Source of the DNA: Myxococcota bacterium
GTDB lineage: Bacteria > Myxococcota_A > UBA9160 > UBA6930
Assembly: GCA_965223415.1 (NCBI GenBank)
Contig: OZ245002.1
Coordinates: 4,296,757 to 4,360,756 of the forward strand
DNA: 64,000 bases
Reading direction: 5' to 3'
The notes under the pieces were generated by a model. The model saw only the letters and a program-made list of their open reading frames with translations, searched no databases and had not been told where the DNA came from. This document shows, one piece after another, positions 3,638 through 27,560 of the stretch. Every line of letters starts with the position of its first letter. Position 1 is the first letter of the stretch. The translations under genes were made by a program, and so were the position numbers.

Positions 3638-4090
3638 GTGGAACCGCGTCGCTACTGCACCTTCTACCTGGCGGATCTTCTCTTCGGCTTGCCAGTCGAA
3701 CGCGTGCAGGAGGTGATCCGCGCCCAGCCGATGACGGCCGTACCGCTGGCGCCGACAGCAATTCGGGGCCTGATGAACCTTCGCGGCCAGATCATCACGG
3801 TGCTGGAGTTGCGCCGGCGCCTGGAGTTGCCTGATCGCGATCCCGACCGGGAGCCGACCAACGTCGTGGTCCAGGCCGAGGAGGGAGCGATCAGCCTGCT
3901 CGTCGATCGCATCAGTGACGTGCTGGAAGTGGGGGACGAGGCCTTTGAGCCGCCGCCCCAGAACTTGCACGGCGAAGCTCGAGAGCTGATCCGAGGTGCC
4001 TACAAGCTGGAAGGCCGGCTCCTTCTGGTGCTCGACATCGAGAAGACCCTCGAGATCGGCAGGCGGCGCGCGGGCTCCCGAGCAGCCTGA
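3638..4090 (+). CDS. cheW: Chemotaxis coupling protein CheW
   Basis: 150 aa, typical CheW sequence (YCTFYLADLLFGLPVERVQEV...LMNLRGQIITVLELRRRL). GTG start 4 nt after the cheA stop. Confidence 0.9.
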   Translation: MEPRRYCTFYLADLLFGLPVERVQEVIRAQPMTAVPLAPTAIRGLMNLRGQIITVLELRRRLELPDRDPDREPTNVVVQAEEGAISLLVDRISDVLEVGDEAFEPPPQNLHGEARELIRGAYKLEGRLLLVLDIEKTLEIGRRRAGSRAA

Positions 4091-5238
4091 TGGTGCTTCC
4101 CCGGGGCGAGCGCCCCCACGCGCGTGTTCGCAGAAAGATCGGAGTCCTGGTTGTCGACGACTCGGTCGTCGTCCGGCGGATCCTTCGCAACGCCATCGAA
4201 TCCGATCCCGAGTTCGAAGTGGTCGGGACCGCGGCCAACGGCCGGGTCGCCGTCGCCCTCGTCCAGAGCCTCCGTCCGGACGCCATCACCCTCGACGTGG
4301 AGATGCCGGTGATGGGCGGCATCGAAACGTTGAAGGAGCTGCGCAGGCGGAGGCTCTCACTTCCGGTCGTGATGTTCTCGACGCTCACAGAGGCGGGCGC
4401 TCGAACGACCATCGAGGCGCTCTCGCTGGGTGCCAGCGATTATGCTCCCAAGCCCTCCCAGACGGACCCGGAAGCCTCCGCCGAGGAAGTGCGAAGGACA
4501 CTTCTGCCCAAGCTGAAGGCCCTCTGTCGGCAAGTGCCCCCGCCCTGTCGGCGGCGGGCGCCCGCGCCCTCGTCGCCGCCTCCCAGCGATCGCGGTCGTT
4601 CGCCCATCGCGAGGTCGCCCGCCCTGGAGCTGGTCGCGGTGGGGGCCTCGACGGGCGGGCCCAACGCGCTCGCTCACCTGCTGCCGGCACTACCCGACCG
4701 CTTCCCCGTCCCGGTCGTAGTCGTGCAGCACATGCCTCCGGTGTTCACCCGTCTCCTCGCGGAGCGCCTGGACAGCAGGACCGCGCTCCGCGTCGTGGAG
4801 GGCTCCGCGGGAGCGCTCCTCGAGCCGCGTACGGTGTACGTGGCACCCGGCGGCTTCCACATGACCGTCGCGCGCAAGGGGCCGCGACTCGCACTGGCTC
4901 TCGACCGGAAGCCCCCCGAACATGGCTGTCGGCCCGCGGCCGATCCCCTGTTCCGATCCGCTTCAGCGACGCTAGGCGCCGGCGCGCTCGGCGTGGTGCT
5001 CACCGGCATGGGGCGCGACGGCTGCGACGGAGCGAGGGCGCTGGTGGAGGCCGGCGCGAAGGTCGTCGCGCAGGACGCAGAGAGCTCCGTCGTGTGGGGG
5101 ATGGCCGGGAGTGTCGTCGAGGGAGGGCTGGCGGAAGCGGTCCTGCCGCTGTCCGAGCTGGCCGGCGAGATCGTCCGTCGCGTGGAGGCCGGCCGGCCCC
5201 AGCACCCTCGGGTGCGCCCGGAGGCAAAGGCGGGATGA
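4090..5238 (+). CDS. cheB: Chemotaxis response regulator protein-glutamate methylesterase CheB
   Basis: N-terminal receiver (VLVVDDS...DAITLDVEMPVMGG) plus methylesterase domain (GASTGGP, VVVQHMP, TGMGRDG). The ATG overlaps the cheW stop (TGATG). Confidence 0.92.
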   Translation: MVLPRGERPHARVRRKIGVLVVDDSVVVRRILRNAIESDPEFEVVGTAANGRVAVALVQSLRPDAITLDVEMPVMGGIETLKELRRRRLSLPVVMFSTLTEAGARTTIEALSLGASDYAPKPSQTDPEASAEEVRRTLLPKLKALCRQVPPPCRRRAPAPSSPPPSDRGRSPIARSPALELVAVGASTGGPNALAHLLPALPDRFPVPVVVVQHMPPVFTRLLAERLDSRTALRVVEGSAGALLEPRTVYVAPGGFHMTVARKGPRLALALDRKPPEHGCRPAADPLFRSASATLGAGALGVVLTGMGRDGCDGARALVEAGAKVVAQDAESSVVWGMAGSVVEGGLAEAVLPLSELAGEIVRRVEAGRPQHPRVRPEAKAG

Positions 5239-6062
5239 AGTCGGACGAATTTCGTTTCCTCTCCGAGCTCGTCCATGATTTCTCCGGCATCGTTCTCGAC
5301 GAAGGGAAGCGCTACCTGGTGGAGTCGCGCCTCGCTCCTTGCCTCCCGGAGCACGGAATTCGCAGCTTCGGAGAGCTCGTCGCCCGGCTCCAGGAGCCGG
5401 GCCGACAACTCCTCGCAGAGCTGGTGGTGGACGCGATGACTACCAACGAGACGCTCTTCTTCCGAGATCCCGCAATGTTCGACGCGCTCCGGAACCAGGT
5501 GCTGCCTCGTCTCGTCGTGGCCCGGGACTCGGCGAAACAGCTTCGGCTCTGGTGCGGAGCGTCGGCGACAGGTCAGGAGCCCTACAGCATTGCGGTCACG
5601 ATCCGGGAGGCGTTTCCCGAGCTTGCGTCCTGGGACGTGACGCTCCTGGCGACGGACCTCTCCCGCAGCGCGCTCGCTCGAGCCGAGGAAGGGGTCTACT
5701 CCGATCTCGAGGTCCGGCGGGGCCTCGATGAGGAGCTGCGCGACAGGTACTTCATCGCCAGGGACGGACGATGGGTCGCTCGCCAGGAGATCCGGCGTCT
5801 GGTGACCTTCCGCAACCTGAATCTCGTGCACCCGTGGCCGAACCTCGGCGACTTCGACGTCGTCTTCCTCCGCAACGTCCTGATCTACTTCGACGCCGAG
5901 ACGAAGAAGGGCGTCATGCAGCGCGTGCGCAAGGTCGTGCGGCCGGACGGATATCTGTTCCTGGCCGCGACCGAGAACCCACCTGGCGCCCAGTGCGACT
6001 GGGTGCGAGAGCCGTGGCGCGGTGCGGGCTGTCTCTCTCCTCGAACTCGCGGGGACAGGTAG
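5235..6062 (+). CDS. cheR: Chemotaxis protein methyltransferase CheR
   Basis: In-frame ATG at 5235 of ORF 3996..6062, forming an ATGA overlap with the cheB stop. CheR motifs include TNETLFFRD, LRLWCGASATGQEPYSIA and FLRNVLIYFD. Confidence 0.9.
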   Translation: MKSDEFRFLSELVHDFSGIVLDEGKRYLVESRLAPCLPEHGIRSFGELVARLQEPGRQLLAELVVDAMTTNETLFFRDPAMFDALRNQVLPRLVVARDSAKQLRLWCGASATGQEPYSIAVTIREAFPELASWDVTLLATDLSRSALARAEEGVYSDLEVRRGLDEELRDRYFIARDGRWVARQEIRRLVTFRNLNLVHPWPNLGDFDVVFLRNVLIYFDAETKKGVMQRVRKVVRPDGYLFLAATENPPGAQCDWVREPWRGAGCLSPRTRGDR

Positions 6063-17839: not shown

Positions 17840-19354
17840 GTGACCGATGCCCTCATCGAACGCATCCTGCGCGCGCGGGTCTACGACGTCGCCCGGGAGA
17901 CCCCGCTCGAGGATGCGCCGCGGCTCTCGGCGCGCTTCGGCGAGCGGGTGCTGCTGAAGCGCGAGGATCTCCAGCCGATCTTCTCCTTCAAGCTGCGCGG
18001 CGCGTACCACAAGATCTCCCAGCTTCCGCCCGACGAGGCCCGACGCGGGCTCGTGGCTTGCTCCGCCGGCAACCACGCCCAGGGGGTGGCCCTTGCGGCC
18101 GCGCGCCTGGGTTTCCCGGCCACGATCGTCATGCCCCGCACCACGCCCTCGATCAAGGTGCAGGCGGTGGACGCCCTGGGCGCGAAGGTCGAGCTCTTCG
18201 GCGACACGGTGGCCGATGCCGGCGAGCGGGCGGACGCCCTGGCCGCCGAGCACGGCTACGCCTTCGTCCACCCCTTCGACGATCCGGACGTGATCGCGGG
18301 CCAGGGCACGATCGGCATGGAGATCCTGCGCCAGCACCCGGACCCCATCGACGCGATCTTCGTGCCGGTGGGCGGCGCGGGCCTGCTGGCCGGCGTGCTC
18401 GCCTACGTGAAGTTCCTGCGCCCGGAGACCCGCGTCTTCGGGGTCGAGGCGGAGGATGCGGCGAGCCTGGCGGCCGCCCTCGCGGCGGGCCGGCCGGTCG
18501 CGCTTCCTCGGGTCGGTCTGTTCGTCGACGGCGCCGCGGTGCGCCAGGTCGGCCGTCTCCCCTTCGACATCGTCCAGGGCCGGGTCGATGGCGTGCTGCG
18601 GGTCGGCGTCGACGAGGTGTGCGCCGCGATCCAGGACCTCTTCGAGGAGACCCGGGTGCTGGCCGAGCCGGCCGGGGCACTGGCACTGGCCGGCATGAAG
18701 CGCTGGCTCGAGGAGAAGGGCGGCGGCCAGGGCCGGGCGCTGGTCGCGATCCAGAGCGGTGCCAACATCAACTTCCACCGCCTCCGGCACATCTCCGAGC
18801 GCGCCGAGCTGGGCGAGCACCGGGAGGCGATCCTCGCCGTGACCATTCCCGAGCGGCCCGGGAGCTTCCGCGAGCTGTGTGGCGCCTTGCGGGACGCCAA
18901 CGTGACCGAGTTCAACTACCGCCACGCCGACAGCCCGGAGGCCCACGTGTTCGTCGGCGTCGCGCTGGGCCAGGGCGTCGCGCGGGAGGAGCTCGTGGGC
19001 GGCCTCCAGCGGGCGGGCTACGGCGTCGTCGACATGACCGAGAACGAGATGGCACTCCTCCACACCCGCTTCATGGTGGGCGGCCGGGCCCCGGAGCTGG
19101 CCGACGAGCGCCTGCTGCGCTTCGAGTTCCCGGAGCGCCCGGGAGCCCTGGCCCGTTTCCTGGAGCTGATGGATCCGCGCTGGAACCTCTCGCTCTTCCA
19201 CTACCGCAACCACGGCTCGGCGGTGGGCCGGGTACTGGCGGGGATCCAGGTGCCGGCGGGGGAGGACGGAGGCTTCCGGCGCTATCTGGACGAGCTCGGC
19301 TACCCCTGGAGCGAGGAGACAGAGAATCCGGCCTATCGCCTCTTTCTTCGCTGA
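17840..19354 (+). CDS. ilvA: Biosynthetic threonine ammonia-lyase (threonine dehydratase)
   Basis: 504 aa. PLP region KREDLQPIFSFKLRGAY plus two C-terminal ACT-like regulatory repeats, the length and order typical of IlvA. Confidence 0.9.
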   Translation: MTDALIERILRARVYDVARETPLEDAPRLSARFGERVLLKREDLQPIFSFKLRGAYHKISQLPPDEARRGLVACSAGNHAQGVALAAARLGFPATIVMPRTTPSIKVQAVDALGAKVELFGDTVADAGERADALAAEHGYAFVHPFDDPDVIAGQGTIGMEILRQHPDPIDAIFVPVGGAGLLAGVLAYVKFLRPETRVFGVEAEDAASLAAALAAGRPVALPRVGLFVDGAAVRQVGRLPFDIVQGRVDGVLRVGVDEVCAAIQDLFEETRVLAEPAGALALAGMKRWLEEKGGGQGRALVAIQSGANINFHRLRHISERAELGEHREAILAVTIPERPGSFRELCGALRDANVTEFNYRHADSPEAHVFVGVALGQGVAREELVGGLQRAGYGVVDMTENEMALLHTRFMVGGRAPELADERLLRFEFPERPGALARFLELMDPRWNLSLFHYRNHGSAVGRVLAGIQVPAGEDGGFRRYLDELGYPWSEETENPAYRLFLR

Positions 19355-19415
19355 ACTCTCGCGGCGTTTACGGAGTCTTTACGCGGGATGCGAGGACACC
19401 GGTTAGGCTCGGAAC

Positions 19416-20264
19416 ATGAGCGATCCGCGCGCCCTCCAGATCGCCGCCCTGGGCGGACTCGCCGTCTACGGGTCGGCGGCCCTCGATTTCGAGATCGAGG
19501 CCGGACGGGTCGCCTTGGTGGTAGCGGTGGCCTTGGCCACGGAGTGGATCGGGCGACGCCTCCGCGGCGAGCCCTTCGACCCGCGCAGCCCGCTGATCAC
19601 GGCGCTCTCCCTGACGCTCCTGCTGCGCGCCGCGACGCCGGGCCTCGCCGCGGCCGGGGCGCTCCTCGCCGTCGGCAGCAAGCACCTGCTGCGGGCCCGT
19701 GGCGGCCACGTCTTCAACCCGGCCAACTTCGGCATCGTGGTGCTGCTGCTCGCCACGGACGGGGTATGGGTGTCCGCCGGCCAGTGGGGACACGCAGCAC
19801 TCCTGGCCCTGGCCCTCGCGGGCGCGGGACAGCTCGTGATCCATCGGTCCACGCGCAGCGACGTCACCTGGGCGTTCCTCGCGGCCTGGGGCGGCCTCAC
19901 CTTCGGGCGCGCCGCCTGGCTCGGCGACCCCTGGGCGATTCCGCTGCACCAGCTCCAGAACGGCGCGTTGCTGATCTTCGCCTTCTTCATGATCTCGGAT
20001 CCGCGCACCACGCCGCGCTCGCGGGCCGGCCGGGTGTTCTACGCGGCGGTGGTGGCCGGCGCCGGCTTCGCCCTGCGGTTCGGCGCCCACGAGCCGAACG
20101 GCCTGCTCCATGCCCTGTTCGCAGCGGCCCCCCTGGTGCCGCTGCTCGACCGTTGGCTTCCCGGCCCCACCTATCGGTGGGACCGGGCTCCGGAGGAACC
20201 CCGACATGCGTCCCCGTCTTCGCTCCCTGCTCCTCTCCTGCCTGTGCCTCGTGGGGCTCGCTGA
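19416..20264 (+). CDS. Polytopic membrane protein of the NqrB/RnfD-like family (orphan)
   Basis: 282 aa, multiple hydrophobic spans. Motifs GGHVFNPANFGIVVLL and FAFFMISDPRTTP match what I recall as NqrB/RnfD hallmarks. No other Rnf/Nqr subunits are nearby. Confidence 0.6.
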   Translation: MSDPRALQIAALGGLAVYGSAALDFEIEAGRVALVVAVALATEWIGRRLRGEPFDPRSPLITALSLTLLLRAATPGLAAAGALLAVGSKHLLRARGGHVFNPANFGIVVLLLATDGVWVSAGQWGHAALLALALAGAGQLVIHRSTRSDVTWAFLAAWGGLTFGRAAWLGDPWAIPLHQLQNGALLIFAFFMISDPRTTPRSRAGRVFYAAVVAGAGFALRFGAHEPNGLLHALFAAAPLVPLLDRWLPGPTYRWDRAPEEPRHASPSSLPAPLLPVPRGAR

Positions 20265-21585
20265 GGGAGCCCGCGCCTTCTGTGGCTTCTACGTCGCGAA
20301 GGCCGACACGAAGCTCTGGAACCAGGCCTCCCAGGTCGTGCTGGTGCGCGACGGCGACCGCACCGTGCTCACCATGGCCAACGACTTCAAGGGCGACCCC
20401 AAGGAGTTCGCCGTCGTGATCCCGGTGCCGACCTTCCTCGAGCGCGAGCAGATCCACGTGGGGGACAAGGCGGTGATCGACCATCTCGACGCCTACACGG
20501 CGCCGCGGCTGGTCGAGTACTTCGACTCGGATCCGTGCATGCTCGCGAAGATGCGTCGTATGGAGGCCGCGCTCCCCCAAGCATCGGCCGCCGGCCGCGC
20601 GTCGGCCGACAACGCTCGCGCCCTCGGCGTCACGATCGAGGCCGCCTACACCGTCGGCGAGTACGACATCCTGATCCTCTCCGCCGAGGAGAGCTCGGGC
20701 CTCGAGACCTGGCTCACCGGGAACGGCTACCGGCTTCCCGAGGGCGCCGGCCCCGTGCTCGGCAGCTACCTGAAGCAGGGCATGCGCTTCTTCGTCGCCA
20801 AGGTGAACCTGGAGGAGCAGGCGAAGTCCGGCTACCAAACCCTGCGCCCGCTGCAGGTGGCCTACGAGTCGCCGAAGTTCATGCTGCCCATCCGCCTGGG
20901 CACGGTCAACGCGGAAGGGCCCCAGGAGCTCTTCGTCTACGCCCTCACCCGGACCGGCCGCGTGGAGACGACGAACTACCGCACCGTCAAGCTCCCCACC
21001 GGCATGGACATCCCGGTCGCCACCAAGGAGCGCTTCGGCGAGTTCTACCGGGCGATGTTCGGCGAGCAGACCCGCCGCGAGAACGCCGAGGTGGTCTTCC
21101 TCGAGTACGCCTGGGACATGAACTGGTGCGATCCCTGCGCGGCGGATCCGCTCTCCCGCGACGAGCTCCGGCAGCTCGGCGTCTTCTGGCTGGAGGACGG
21201 GCCCGTGCCGATGCCCGGCCAGCCGCGCATCATGCCCCCGCCGACGCCGGCCCAGAACGTCTTCGCGACCCGCCTCCACCTGCGCTACGACCGGGAGCAC
21301 TTCCCGGAGGACCTGCGCTTCCAGGAGACCGGCGATCGCACGAACTTCCAGGGTCGCTACGTGCTGCGCCACGCCTGGACCGGCGACGCCCAGTGCGCCG
21401 CCGCCGAGAGCTATCGCGCGGCCCTCCCCCAGCGCCACGAGAAGGAGGTCCAGACCCTGGCCTCCCTGACCGGCTGGGACATCGGCGACATCCGGCGCTG
21501 GGCAGGGCTCCCCCCGACGCCCGCGAAGCCCACGGAGCCGCCGTCGCCCGATCCCTGGTGGAAGCGCCTCTGGCCGAGCGAGTAG
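20206..21585 (+). CDS. Secreted DUF2330-like protein
   Basis: Met 33 of ORF 20110..21585 gives a clear signal peptide MRPRLRSLLLSCLCLVGLAEGARA followed by FCGFYVAKAD. 459 aa. Overlaps the upstream gene by 59 nt. The DUF2330 assignment is from memory of the family. Confidence 0.65.
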   Translation: MRPRLRSLLLSCLCLVGLAEGARAFCGFYVAKADTKLWNQASQVVLVRDGDRTVLTMANDFKGDPKEFAVVIPVPTFLEREQIHVGDKAVIDHLDAYTAPRLVEYFDSDPCMLAKMRRMEAALPQASAAGRASADNARALGVTIEAAYTVGEYDILILSAEESSGLETWLTGNGYRLPEGAGPVLGSYLKQGMRFFVAKVNLEEQAKSGYQTLRPLQVAYESPKFMLPIRLGTVNAEGPQELFVYALTRTGRVETTNYRTVKLPTGMDIPVATKERFGEFYRAMFGEQTRRENAEVVFLEYAWDMNWCDPCAADPLSRDELRQLGVFWLEDGPVPMPGQPRIMPPPTPAQNVFATRLHLRYDREHFPEDLRFQETGDRTNFQGRYVLRHAWTGDAQCAAAESYRAALPQRHEKEVQTLASLTGWDIGDIRRWAGLPPTPAKPTEPPSPDPWWKRLWPSE

Positions 21586-21605
21586 GAACAGCGTTTGATC
21601 GAAGT

Positions 21606-21644
21606 CCCGGCGGGTGACGATTCTCACCCCGAAGGGCGCCCGGG
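21606..21644 (+). terminator. GC-rich nested stem-loop after the DUF2330-like gene (possible terminator or attenuator, no U-tract)
   Basis: Inner perfect inverted repeat GGGTGA-cgattc-TCACCC (21612-21629), flanked by an imperfect CCCGGC / GCCCGGG arm pair. Confidence 0.3.
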
Positions 21645-21722
21645 TCTGCCATCCTGCCTCCGGGAGGAACCGGGTCCGAGGTGAGGCATCTCAGGTCTGG
21701 ACCTTTCGGAAGAGGAGACTTC

Positions 21723-21950
21723 ATGACCCGTATCCTGAACCTGCGGCGCCTCGGCCTGGCCGTGGCCGTGGCGGGGCTCCTGGCCCTGCCCCTCGTGGCC
21801 TTCGCCGAGCACCACGAGGCCGGCGAGAACCCGTGCAACCCGTGCGCGGAGAACCCGTGCGGCGACAATCCGTGCGGCGACAATCCGTGCGGCGACAACC
21901 CCTGCGGTGACAACCCGTGCGGCGACAACCCGTGTGGAGGCGGGGACTGA
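21723..21950 (+). CDS. Secreted Cys-every-fifth-residue repeat peptide, (NPCGD)n
   Basis: Met 15 of ORF 21681..21950, preceded by GAGGAG. Signal peptide MTRILNLRRLGLAVAVAGLLALPLVAFA. Mature EHHEAGENPCNPCAENPCGDNPCGDNPCGDNPCGDNPCGDNPCGGGD has 8 Cys, all in N-P-C. Confidence 0.7.
   Translation: MTRILNLRRLGLAVAVAGLLALPLVAFAEHHEAGENPCNPCAENPCGDNPCGDNPCGDNPCGDNPCGDNPCGGGD
21852..21941 (+). repeat. Six tandem 15-bp coding units (AAYCCNTGYGGNGAC) encoding NPCGD
   Basis: Units start at 21852, 21867, 21882, 21897, 21912 and 21927. They differ only at synonymous positions, except the last unit. Confidence 0.9.
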
Positions 21951-21989
21951 TCCCAGCTCCAGTCGAAGCCTGCGTGGCGGGGGCCTCCG

Positions 21990-22111
21990 GGCCTCCGCCG
22001 CGTTCGTTTCGGGGCGTGTCCGGGGCCTCTTGGCCTCCGCCGCGTTCGTTTCGGGGCGTGTCCGGGGCCTCTTGGCCTCCGCCGCGTTCGTTTCGGGGCG
22101 TGTCCGGGGCC
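21990..22111. repeat. Three direct tandem copies of a 42-bp intergenic element (third copy 38 bp)
   Basis: GGCCTCCGCCGCGTTCGTTTCGGGGCGTGTCCGGGGCCTCTT at 21990, 22032 and 22074. Each unit can form CGCCGCG-ttcgttt-CGGGGCG, and unit junctions can form GGGGCC-tctt-GGCCTC. Lies between convergent genes. Confidence 0.9.
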
Positions 22112-22114
22112 GGC

Positions 22115-22597
22115 TCAGCCGGCGGGATCGATCCGGAAGAACCAGCCGGCCTCGCCCGGCCCGCCCCCGTACTTGGCGTCGACCACGCGCTCGAGGGCCG
22201 CCGCCGTGGCCTCGTCGTCCACCTTCACGAGGGTGGCGCGATAGCGCCGGCCCTCGATGCGCAGGACGGCGCGGCCGTCCCGGCGGGCGTCCTCGTGCCA
22301 GGTCTTCCCGGGCGGGAAGCCGAGGCTGCAGGGGACGTAGGCCCGGCCGTCGTGAACGAGGATCCAGGTCGTGCGGGAGGTCTCCTGGGCCGCGAGCTGC
22401 AGCTCGATCTCCGGGACACCGGAGGCGAAGGACCAGTCGGTCACCGGGCCTTCCACCCACTCTCCGCTCGTGAGGGCGCCGCCGGGGAAGAGCGCGATGG
22501 GCCCGTCCGAGCAGCGCGCGACAAGGGTCGTGAGCACGAGCAGGCTGCCGAGGAAGACCGTGCCGATACCCACCCAGCGCAGGACGAGCTTCGTCAC
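22115..22597 (-). CDS. Hypothetical membrane-anchored protein
   Basis: 160-aa tail of ORF 22115..22915 from a GTG (VTKLVLRWVGIGTVFLGSLLVLTTLVA...). GTGA overlap with the upstream LLM oxidoreductase stop. No family recognised. Confidence 0.55.
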   Translation of the reverse strand: MTKLVLRWVGIGTVFLGSLLVLTTLVARCSDGPIALFPGGALTSGEWVEGPVTDWSFASGVPEIELQLAAQETSRTTWILVHDGRAYVPCSLGFPPGKTWHEDARRDGRAVLRIEGRRYRATLVKVDDEATAAALERVVDAKYGGGPGEAGWFFRIDPAG

Positions 22598-25818: not shown

Positions 25819-26346
25819 TCAGTCCGCCGGGAGCTCCATCCAGAAGACGCCGCGCAGCTCGCCCTCGGCGAAGCCCGTGGCGCGGTCGTCCGGGTAGAGC
25901 GCCGCCAGGTGCTCGGCGAGCTCCGGCGAAAGCTCGCTGCCGTGGCAAGAGAGGCAGAGCGCCTGGGTGACGATGGGCTCGACGTAGCCGGTGCGTCCGC
26001 CGGGCAGGGCGACCGTTCGCGGCGCGCGGTTGCTCGGATCCGCCCGGTAGGTGTCGAGGATCGGCAGGGTCCAGGCCGGCGGGGCGTTCGCCGGGTTGCG
26101 CAGCCGGTGGCTGGTGCGGCCGACCCGCAGCCCGTCCTCCGCGTGGGCGGCGGCGATCTCGGGGGCGCGCAGCTGGCAGGCCTCGATCGCGTGGCGCGGG
26201 CCCTGGGCCAGGCCCTGCTTCAGGGCGGCTTGCAGGTCGCGCTTGAAGGGCGCGAGACGCTCCGCAGGAGTGAGGTCGGCGTCTCCGGCGTTCGCCGGGA
26301 CGGCGGCGAGCAGCAGGGCGGCGGCGAGCGATCGAATCGTATGCAT
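25819..26346 (-). CDS. Secreted DUF3365 (Tll0287-like) protein with a c-type heme site
   Basis: 175-aa tail of ORF 25819..27765. Signal peptide MHTIRSLAAALLLAAVPANA and a CxxCH site (CLSCH). Starts 2 nt after the P450 stop. Confidence 0.65.
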   Translation of the reverse strand: MHTIRSLAAALLLAAVPANAGDADLTPAERLAPFKRDLQAALKQGLAQGPRHAIEACQLRAPEIAAAHAEDGLRVGRTSHRLRNPANAPPAWTLPILDTYRADPSNRAPRTVALPGGRTGYVEPIVTQALCLSCHGSELSPELAEHLAALYPDDRATGFAEGELRGVFWMELPAD

Positions 26347-26348
26347 GC

Positions 26349-27560
26349 CTAGCGACGTACCTCGAGAGGGAGCGACTCGAAGCCCCGGATCACCATCGAG
26401 CGCAGGCGCTGCGGGGCCTCCGGAGCGGGGGCGATCTCCGAGTAGCGGTCCAGGAGGGCGTCCAACGCGATGCGTCCTTCCAGTCGCGCGAGGCCGGCGC
26501 CCAGGCAGAAGTGCACGCCGAAGCCGAAGCCCAGGTGGCGGCCTTCGGTGCGCTCCGGGAGGTACTGGTCCGGGTCGGCGAAGGCGGCCGGGTCGCGGTT
26601 GGCAGCGCCGAAGGAGAGGATCACGCGGCTTCCCGCCGGGATGTCGACGCCGGCGACGGTCACGTCGCGGGTCGTCTCCCGGCCCAGGTTCTGGACCGGC
26701 CCGTCGAAGCGCACGGTTTCTTCGAGGGCGGCGGGGACCCGACTGCGGTCCTCCCGAAGCTGCTTCCACAGGTCCGGTCGCGTCGCGAGCAGGTTCAGCT
26801 GGTTGCTGATCAGGTTCGTCGTCGTCTCGTTGCCGGCCACGAGCAGCACGATGAAGAAGCCGTCCAGCTCCGCCTGGCTGAGGCGGCGGCCGTCGATCTC
26901 CGCGTGGACGAGAGCCGAGACGAGATCGTCCTTGGGCTCGCGGCGGCGCTCTTCCGCCAGGCCCCGGAAGTAGTCGACGAGCTCGTGAGCCGACGCCAGC
27001 AGCTCCGGCGTCGGGGGCTGCTCGAGCAGGCCCACGAAGGCGTCGGACCAGCGCCGGAAGTCGTCGCGGTGCTCCGGATCGACGCCGAGCATCTCGGCGA
27101 TCACGAAGACCGGAAGCGGGATGCTGAGGGCGGGCACCAGGTCGAAACCGTCGTCGGGGAGTGCGTCCATCCGCTCGCGGGTCAGCTGCCGCACGCGCGG
27201 CTCGGCCGCCGCCACGCGCCGGGGCGTGAAGGCCCGGTTCACCAGGGCCCGGAGCTGGTCGTGGTGGGGCGGGTCGGTGGCGGGCAGGGCGGGCAGGTTG
27301 GCGAGCCCGCCTCCCCGCGGTGCCGGGCCGGCGGCGCTGCTGAAGGTGGCCGGGTCCTTGAGGGCCTCGAGCACGTCGTCGAAGCGCGTCAGCACATAGG
27401 CGCCGTAGCGCGGCTCCCGGTACACCGGCGCGTCGCGGCGCAGCCGCGCGTAGGCCGGAAAGGGATCCTCCTGGAACTCGGCGGAGAAGACGTCGACGTC
27501 CACCTCCGGAGCATCGCCGATCGCGCGGGCCTTGCGCCACACGCGGTATGCTGCCGCCAT
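26349..27560 (-). CDS. Cytochrome P450
   Basis: 403 aa. I-helix LLVAGNETTTN, ExxR (EETVR) and the heme-thiolate loop FGFGVHFCLGAGLAR. Confidence 0.92.
   Translation of the reverse strand: MAAAYRVWRKARAIGDAPEVDVDVFSAEFQEDPFPAYARLRRDAPVYREPRYGAYVLTRFDDVLEALKDPATFSSAAGPAPRGGGLANLPALPATDPPHHDQLRALVNRAFTPRRVAAAEPRVRQLTRERMDALPDDGFDLVPALSIPLPVFVIAEMLGVDPEHRDDFRRWSDAFVGLLEQPPTPELLASAHELVDYFRGLAEERRREPKDDLVSALVHAEIDGRRLSQAELDGFFIVLLVAGNETTTNLISNQLNLLATRPDLWKQLREDRSRVPAALEETVRFDGPVQNLGRETTRDVTVAGVDIPAGSRVILSFGAANRDPAAFADPDQYLPERTEGRHLGFGFGVHFCLGAGLARLEGRIALDALLDRYSEIAPAPEAPQRLRSMVIRGFESLPLEVRR

Follow-up and report, generated by a model that had tools for sequence, protein, structure and literature searches.

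Within a 64,000-nucleotide stretch of a Myxococcota genome (contig OZ245002.1, positions 4,296,757 to 4,360,756; hereafter the window), two overlapping genes encode a polytopic membrane protein of the RnfD/NqrB fold, here called A, and an exported DUF2330 protein, here called B. Together they are a widespread, self-contained two-gene unit, in which an RnfD-fold membrane protein has one extracytoplasmic partner. A falls short of what defines an Rnf/Nqr subunit, and the explanation that best covers the whole, which we hold to be somewhat better than an even bet, is an inner-membrane/periplasmic module with A and B as its two subunits and thiol chemistry centred on B. The genes and motifs on which the argument draws lie as follows:

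19416..20264, plus strand: open reading frame (ORF) A, a 282-aa polytopic membrane protein of the RnfD/NqrB fold, with no Cys and without the flavinylation insert
19707..19733, plus strand: HVFNPANFG, first family signature of A (residues 98-106), with H, N and P invariant in 121 fusion proteins; common to E. coli RsxD
19764..19790, plus strand: VWVSAGQWG, a short near-invariant loop of A (W, S, Q, W and G invariant), located by alignment with RsxD at the site of the ~85-aa insert that carries the flavin mononucleotide (FMN) Thr in RnfD
19983..20003, plus strand: FFMISDP, second family signature of A (residues 190-196), from conservation in the fusions and alignment with RsxD
20206..21585, plus strand: ORF B, a 459-aa exported DUF2330 protein
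20206..20264, plus strand: A/B overlap of 59 nt, where the 3' end of A and the 5' end of B are read in two different frames
20206..20277, plus strand: residues 1-24 of B, its signal peptide, with A-R-A as the last three residues, a sequence read-out; small residues at -1/-3 are kept across loci, fused forms included
20278..20307, plus strand: FCGFYVAKAD, mature N-terminus of B with Cys at mature position 2; invariant in 69/69 sequences
21124..21138, plus strand: WCDPC, CxxC motif of B (residues 307-311); invariant among 69 homologues and gone from one divergent subclade
21723..21950, plus strand: ORF C, an exported Cys-repeat peptide of 75 aa, EHHE followed by NPCxx repeats

The window has a G+C content of ~71%, and the three plus-strand ORFs A, B and C stand in a row, with overlap and spacing (59 nt between A and B, 137 nt from B to the peptide gene) reproducing the coordinates of a first-pass annotation made earlier on this DNA. 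The G+C fraction at third codon positions (GC3) is 0.88 for ORF A, the bias typical of real genes in this genome, and 0.93 for ORF B, whose open frame runs from 19993 to 21585 and whose longest possible form would begin at 20110. The start at 20206 is nonetheless preferred, because a GGAGG Shine-Dalgarno sequence lies at 20191-20195, 10 nt ahead of it, the resulting N-terminus resembles that of all homologues, and the 459-aa form is the one given in public annotation.

The distribution of the pair was followed by a scan of a one-genome-per-species collection, which matched at least 600 stretches, at least 591 of them encoding relatives of B, and 80 loci were kept. These include Acidobacteriota, Verrucomicrobiota, Nitrospirota, Alpha- and Gammaproteobacteria and metagenome-assembled genomes (MAGs) of Deltaproteobacteria, as well as Binatia, Rokuibacteriota, Methylomirabilia, Eisenbacteria and Leptospirales; the one cultured strain in this set is Hyphococcus aureus. 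In 78 of 83 loci an A homologue immediately precedes B on its strand, and in four of the remaining five B lies at a contig edge. The first-pass annotation had proposed A and B as partners and had made synteny outside this genome the touchstone of that proposal; the pair was found to be syntenic across more than ten phyla, so that the partnership stands while the term "orphan", if taken to mean that the pair is peculiar to this genome, falls. No third gene is conserved by the pair, the best neighbour among clustered neighbouring ORFs being present in 9 of 84 loci.

The two genes join in highly variable ways: they may be in-frame fused, abut or overlap by 4 to ~60 nt, and the stop codon of A usually falls within or just ahead of the signal-peptide codons of B. 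In-frame fusions were seen at 9 of 85 loci, and more than 120 natural A-B fusion proteins of 690-800 aa were retrieved. The fused forms retain a hydrophobic segment and small residues at -1/-3 (A-x-A) ahead of FCGF, and, as judged from their sequences, cleavage by signal peptidase I probably still releases the two proteins from them. At several loci (L014, L021, L022, L027, L032 and L054) the A frame was observed to run on without a stop past the first codon of mature B.

The pairing recurs in a divergent DUF2330 subclade whose mature end reads A-M-C-G-C-M (P0441, P0451, P0454, P0474 and others; n = 16). Its locus L089, the one such locus seen, has B at 3953-5242, immediately preceded by an RnfD-like gene that overlaps it by 4 nt. 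In combination, the near-universal synteny, the common fusions and the pairing in this divergent subclade make it very probable that A and B form a dedicated complex.

Protein A matches Pfam PF03116 (NQR2_RnfD_RnfE) with 72.7 bits against a cutoff of 27.7, in agreement with the NqrB/RnfD assignment first made from HVFNPANFG and FFMISDP, and it shares both this family and the fold with RnfD, RsxD and NqrB. The motifs HxFNPxN, FFMxxDPxT and VPLxD are likewise common to A and RnfD/RsxD. Conversely, its scores are far under the curated NCBIfam values (TIGR01946, rnfD, 55 versus 207; NF002011, RsxD, 44 versus 415; NF003756, NqrB, 17 versus 414), and at ~280 aa it is shorter than RnfD, RsxD and NqrB (350-410 aa), the ~85-residue insert with the flavinylated Thr being missing. 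In the alignment with A. vinelandii RnfD (8ahx_D), residues 6-113 of A correspond to RnfD 28-134 and residues 121-249 to RnfD 211-339, leaving RnfD residues 135-210 (~76) unmatched. Aligned with E. coli RsxD, A and seven homologues lack the insert holding Thr187 (in DGISQAT), which we take to be the FMN attachment site of RnfD. The Thr motif for FMN attachment that the first-pass annotation had put up for checking is thus gone together with the whole insert, and the [ST]-x-A-[ST] flavinylation context for covalent FMN was not found in A. Nor does the protein contain a single Cys, and over its 282 aa it carries PF03116 alone, with no cytoplasmic domain.

The genes expected beside an Rnf/Nqr D subunit, namely those for five other subunits and ApbE, are not near A, whose partner is instead the DUF2330 protein. 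When the 64-kb window was searched by tblastn with E. coli RsxA, RsxB, RsxC, RsxG, RsxE and ApbE/Ftp, the best E-value was 0.03, which agrees with the earlier remark that no other Rnf, Nqr or ApbE gene is present in the window, although E. coli queries could miss a very divergent homologue. The sole match of E. coli RsxD was ORF A itself (E = 7.5e-6). Similarly, across 84 loci the pair has no Rnf/Nqr subunit or ApbE gene as a conserved neighbour. With the FMN-Thr insert, any Cys and any Rnf/Nqr/ApbE gene in the window all missing, A is almost certainly not part of an Rnf/Nqr pump.

Another name attached to this family comes from the automatic annotation of the JGI, which calls some A homologues (for example P0012, P0036, P0053 and P0079) "enediyne biosynthesis protein E5". 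E5, also known as UnbU, is a polytopic membrane protein encoded beside a secreted protein (E4/UnbV). The enediyne reading was rejected since no polyketide synthase or other enediyne gene was seen by the pair in any locus examined, and judged by gene context the E5 name looks like over-annotation.

The helices of the structure model and the positive-inside rule together predict ten membrane segments for A, with both termini in the cytoplasm. The tail past the last helix contains four Arg/Lys and no acidic residue, a basic character that fits a following signal-anchor taking B outside. On this predicted topology two near-invariant loops, VWVSxGQWG and WLGDPxxIPLHQL, would face the periplasm, and the VWVSAGQWG loop is a candidate docking surface for B. 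Residues invariant among the 121 fusion proteins also include R79, K97, H106, D157, R173 and D203 (numbering of fusion P0215).

Protein B matches DUF2330 (PF10092) over model positions 3-278 of 279 with 290.6 bits against a cutoff of 24.7, so that the DUF2330-like assignment made at first pass is borne out over the full length of the family model. It has more than 8000 close homologues, typically at 65-70% identity across phyla, and its relatives form 6257 clusters at 50% identity; the median identity is 65% for B versus 51% for A. Its Sec-type signal peptide, in which the signal-peptidase-I site is conserved, makes B extracytoplasmic, as had been proposed, and the FCGFYV motif does begin the mature protein, at residues 25-30 after the signal peptide ending in ARA. 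Each of 69 homologues shares F25-C26-G27-F28-Y29-V30. The same set has C111 (in a DPC context), W307-C308-D-P-C311, C397 and many aromatic and charged residues invariant, so that five Cys of B are invariant, the WCDPC pair included. As conservation begins exactly at the signal-peptidase site, the free mature N-terminus of B itself is suggested to matter. The N-terminal Cys is usually kept in distant DUF2330 members as well, and the AMCGCM subclade retains it in 16 of 16 members along with the DPC Cys.

Two other readings of these cysteines were rejected. A lipobox is incompatible with Phe at -1, and with Phe in that position FCG was not accepted as a lipoprotein site; the second Cys of WCDPC is not followed by His, which speaks against c-type haem attachment. 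A flavinylation-type motif was found neither in B nor in its 69 homologues, and the Pfam scan matched DUF2330 alone, with no FMN_bind domain in B. Among distant DUF2330 proteins no informative domain fusion was seen, only tandem DUF2330 copies and unannotated extensions. In the tandem proteins P0354 (963 aa) and P0357 (987 aa) each copy has its own FCGF and CDPC motifs.

Structure models were calculated for B alone, from an alignment of 69 sequences, and with AlphaFold for the fusion P0215 (735 residues), from 121 fusion sequences. The B-alone model has a mean predicted local distance difference test score (pLDDT) of 74.3 and a predicted template modelling score (pTM) of 0.62, several invariant segments being of low confidence. 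The fusion model reaches a pLDDT of 83.3 and a pTM of 0.85, and the latter value indicates a defined predicted arrangement of the two halves; the model is consistent with a specific A-B complex. In Foldseek searches the N-terminal half of the fusion model matched RnfD (8rbq_D, E = 5e-8, template modelling (TM) score 0.68) and NqrB (E ~2e-5), and this membrane half also weakly matched urea transporters (3k3g, E = 0.03, TM 0.44) and AmtB/Rh proteins.

For B, sequence and profile searches of the PDB returned no relative, and Foldseek with the B-alone model gave nothing significant. The B half of the fusion model, by comparison, matched the P35 caspase inhibitors of baculovirus and entomopoxvirus (1i4e_A and 1p35_A; E = 5e-3 to 1e-2, probability 0.98-1.0), with a TM score of only 0.33-0.38 and a root-mean-square deviation of ~10 Å. 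P35 proteins were again the top matches in the viral library (BFVD, E ~1e-2), and outside RnfD/NqrB and related channel proteins they are the sole high-probability matches. The mechanism of P35 uses Cys2 at its N-terminus, which may be set beside the Cys at mature position 2 of B. The profile search detected no sequence similarity between P35 and B, and B differs in being larger, periplasmic and equipped with a membrane partner. The resemblance, seen in a model, is a lead and not a family assignment.

As proposed, the module would work as follows. B would be exported and cleaved, freeing the N-terminus Phe-Cys-Gly-Phe-Tyr-Val, and would dock on the periplasmic face of A via the VWVSxGQWG and WLGDPxxIPLHQL loops. 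The working centre would be formed by the cysteines of B, namely mature Cys2, the DPC Cys, WCDPC and one C-terminal Cys, and would act by thiol chemistry, be it redox, covalent capture or soft-metal binding, on whatever the core of A binds or conducts. This RnfD-type core, with its invariant charged and polar residues, would thus bind or conduct the other reactant. Some form of thiol chemistry is favoured by the invariant WCDPC and the invariant Cys at mature position 2; that such chemistry is coupled to A is, as a separate claim, only tentatively put forward. A sharper version, in which DUF2330 would have a P35-like fold and the freed Phe-Cys would be a reactive arm (thiol/thioester or Cys-flavin/quinone chemistry) reaching into an RnfD pocket that has lost its flavin site, we regard as a long shot. 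If it were true, A-B would be an unrecognised, widespread class of periplasmic thiol enzyme on an Rnf-derived membrane anchor.

Several observations weigh against a thiol-centred A-B complex. In a Methylococcaceae MAG (L030, 5749-7323) a complete DUF2330 gene is not preceded by an RnfD-like one, the only true exception among testable loci. Neither the N-terminal Cys nor WCDPC is universal, since the former is replaced by Gly or Ser in a few distant members (P0389, P0401, P0404 and P0409) and the latter is lost from the AMCGCM subclade, and the five Cys of B could be plain structural disulfides. On the modelling side, some of the rise in confidence for B may be owed to the larger number of aligned sequences behind the fusion model (121 versus 69), and the A-B interface derives from pTM and conservation alone. 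The FCGF segment has a pLDDT below 50 in both models, and with such low confidence its position relative to A is not fixed. Finally, the literature search returned no paper that mentions DUF2330 and none, nor any experiment, that bears on function.

Among described systems, a two-subunit Nqr/Rnf-like complex, composed of an NqrB/RnfD-like and an NqrC/RnfG-like subunit, comes closest (Meheust et al. 2021; bioRxiv 10.1101/2024.03.13.584918). Like A-B it has an RnfD-like subunit without the flavinylated Thr and a single extracytosolic partner, and it is no six-subunit pump. Its membrane subunit, however, carries a cytosolic NAD-binding domain (PF00175) that A does not have, and its partner is a flavinylated, ApbE-associated FMN_bind protein, whereas B is a DUF2330 protein without a flavinylation motif.

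One alternative, close to the first-pass proposal, is that A-B is a flavin-based redox module of the envelope: A would bind flavin non-covalently, the CxxC or N-terminal Cys of B would exchange electrons, and the quinone pool or oxygen would be the other partner, giving a DsbB-, VKOR- or Erv-like thiol oxidase or reductase on an RnfD scaffold. A keeps the motifs shared by RnfD and NqrB, and for the Thr-less two-subunit complex a non-covalent flavin site reached by the extracytosolic partner has been proposed to be retained (bioRxiv 10.1101/2024.03.13.584918). The WCDPC of B further resembles the WCGPC of thioredoxin, and its N-terminal Cys segment, being of low confidence in the models, may be flexible. 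Against this, the FMN-carrying insert of RnfD is deleted in A, which offers no Cys for an electron relay and, unlike the published Nqr/Rnf-like subunit, no NAD-binding domain, nor is there any other cytoplasmic electron-input domain or partner. B is devoid of FMN_bind, the window of an ApbE gene, and the AMCGCM subclade still pairs with A after losing the CxxC. We consider a flavin-based module unlikely. The broader first-pass idea of a small envelope redox or cofactor-handling module is neither demonstrated nor refuted by these findings, which speak against a flavin-based, Rnf-like electron path and, through WCDPC and mature Cys2 of B, for some thiol chemistry.

It is similarly improbable that A is a channel or transporter conducting a small solute or ion, with B as its periplasmic gate, receptor or substrate-processing lid. 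The matches of the A-homologous half of the fusion model to urea transporters and AmtB/Rh, the charged and polar residues that are invariant in its membrane domain and a module without a cytoplasmic partner would all suit such a function; however, the likeness to true channels is weak, the conservation of B far exceeds that of typical binding proteins or lids, and the gene neighbourhoods offer no hint of a substrate.

A third alternative, which by analogy with the CopC-CopD layout would have the module handle a soft metal such as copper, appears rather remote. CopC and CopD are known in paired and fused forms, as are A and B. In such a scheme B would bind the metal by its free amine, the Cys2 thiolate and other Cys and exchange it with A, and the peptide encoded by ORF C would be a lineage-specific metal buffer. 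An invariant N-terminus that starts exactly at the signal-peptidase site and the five invariant Cys of B fit the scheme, as does the next gene in the lineage of the window, whose exported peptide, with EHHE and 5-8 NPC repeats, is faintly HvfA-like. Conversely, no known metal-binding domain is present and no metal-resistance gene is conserved nearby, while the peptide is missing from 79 other loci and its HvfA/CefA scores are far under the cutoffs.

The peptide itself has its own signal peptide, followed by EHHE and five-residue NPC repeats that are encoded by a 15-bp tandem repeat at 21836-21934. Like the HvfA/CefA precursors of ribosomally synthesized and post-translationally modified peptides (RiPPs), it is short, exported or leader-bearing, and has Cys at every fifth residue; unlike them, it falls below the NCBIfam cutoffs (NF050188, 17.1 versus 95; NF038108, 15 versus 30). 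Its gene has its own Shine-Dalgarno sequence, no terminator-like site separates it from B, and it is probably co-transcribed. The peptide may bind soft metals. Homologues of 70-75 aa with 5-8 repeats, the number varying, follow B in L085 (2913-3128), L086 (7503-7715) and L087, whereas none was found downstream of B or near the pair in 79-83 other loci. These three loci share the entire neighbourhood from ilvA through a luciferase-like gene, and the adjacency can therefore be inherited gene order. The connection drawn at first pass between the pair and the Cys-repeat peptide accordingly did not hold beyond these close loci, and the peptide is a lineage-specific neighbour outside the conserved module. 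That A-B is a RiPP-like maturation and export machinery for the peptide is very unlikely: the same-strand gene, which lies 137 nt past B with a Shine-Dalgarno sequence of its own and no intervening terminator-like site, an arrangement repeated in L085, L086 and L087, could reflect the shared ilvA-to-luciferase-like neighbourhood, the peptide has its own signal peptide and is not by the pair in 79-83 other loci, and among the Pfam families recorded for the neighbours in L085, L086 and L087 there is no MNIO/DUF692 or radical S-adenosylmethionine maturase, nor any other known RiPP maturase family.

Around the three genes, Rfam gave no RNA element in 19000-22300, a promoter and terminator scan found no signal, and the PADLOC defence-system library returned no match. 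Between the peptide gene and a convergent minus-strand gene, a 42-bp unit is repeated 3.1 times (95% match) at 21972-22100. Further away, the minus strand encodes, at ~25819-26349, an exported ~176-aa protein that contains CLSCH (CxxCH) and may be a small c-type cytochrome, adjoined by a cytochrome-P450-like ORF at 26349-27560 that is named from its sequence alone.

Pfam already lists both domains, and public data contain the fused architecture. To our knowledge the RnfD/NqrB fold has been described almost only as the flavin-carrying subunit of six-subunit ion pumps; in A-B the fold has lost the flavin attachment site and the usual partners and gained a single exported one. B is among the more conserved uncharacterised bacterial proteins, and nitrifiers and methanotrophs are among the carriers of the pair, as are Acidobacteriota that abound in soil and sea. 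Clear experimental handles are offered by the natural fusions and by the processed N-terminus, which is invariant, and the function, once found, would give a role to DUF2330 and point to other uses of the Rnf membrane scaffold.

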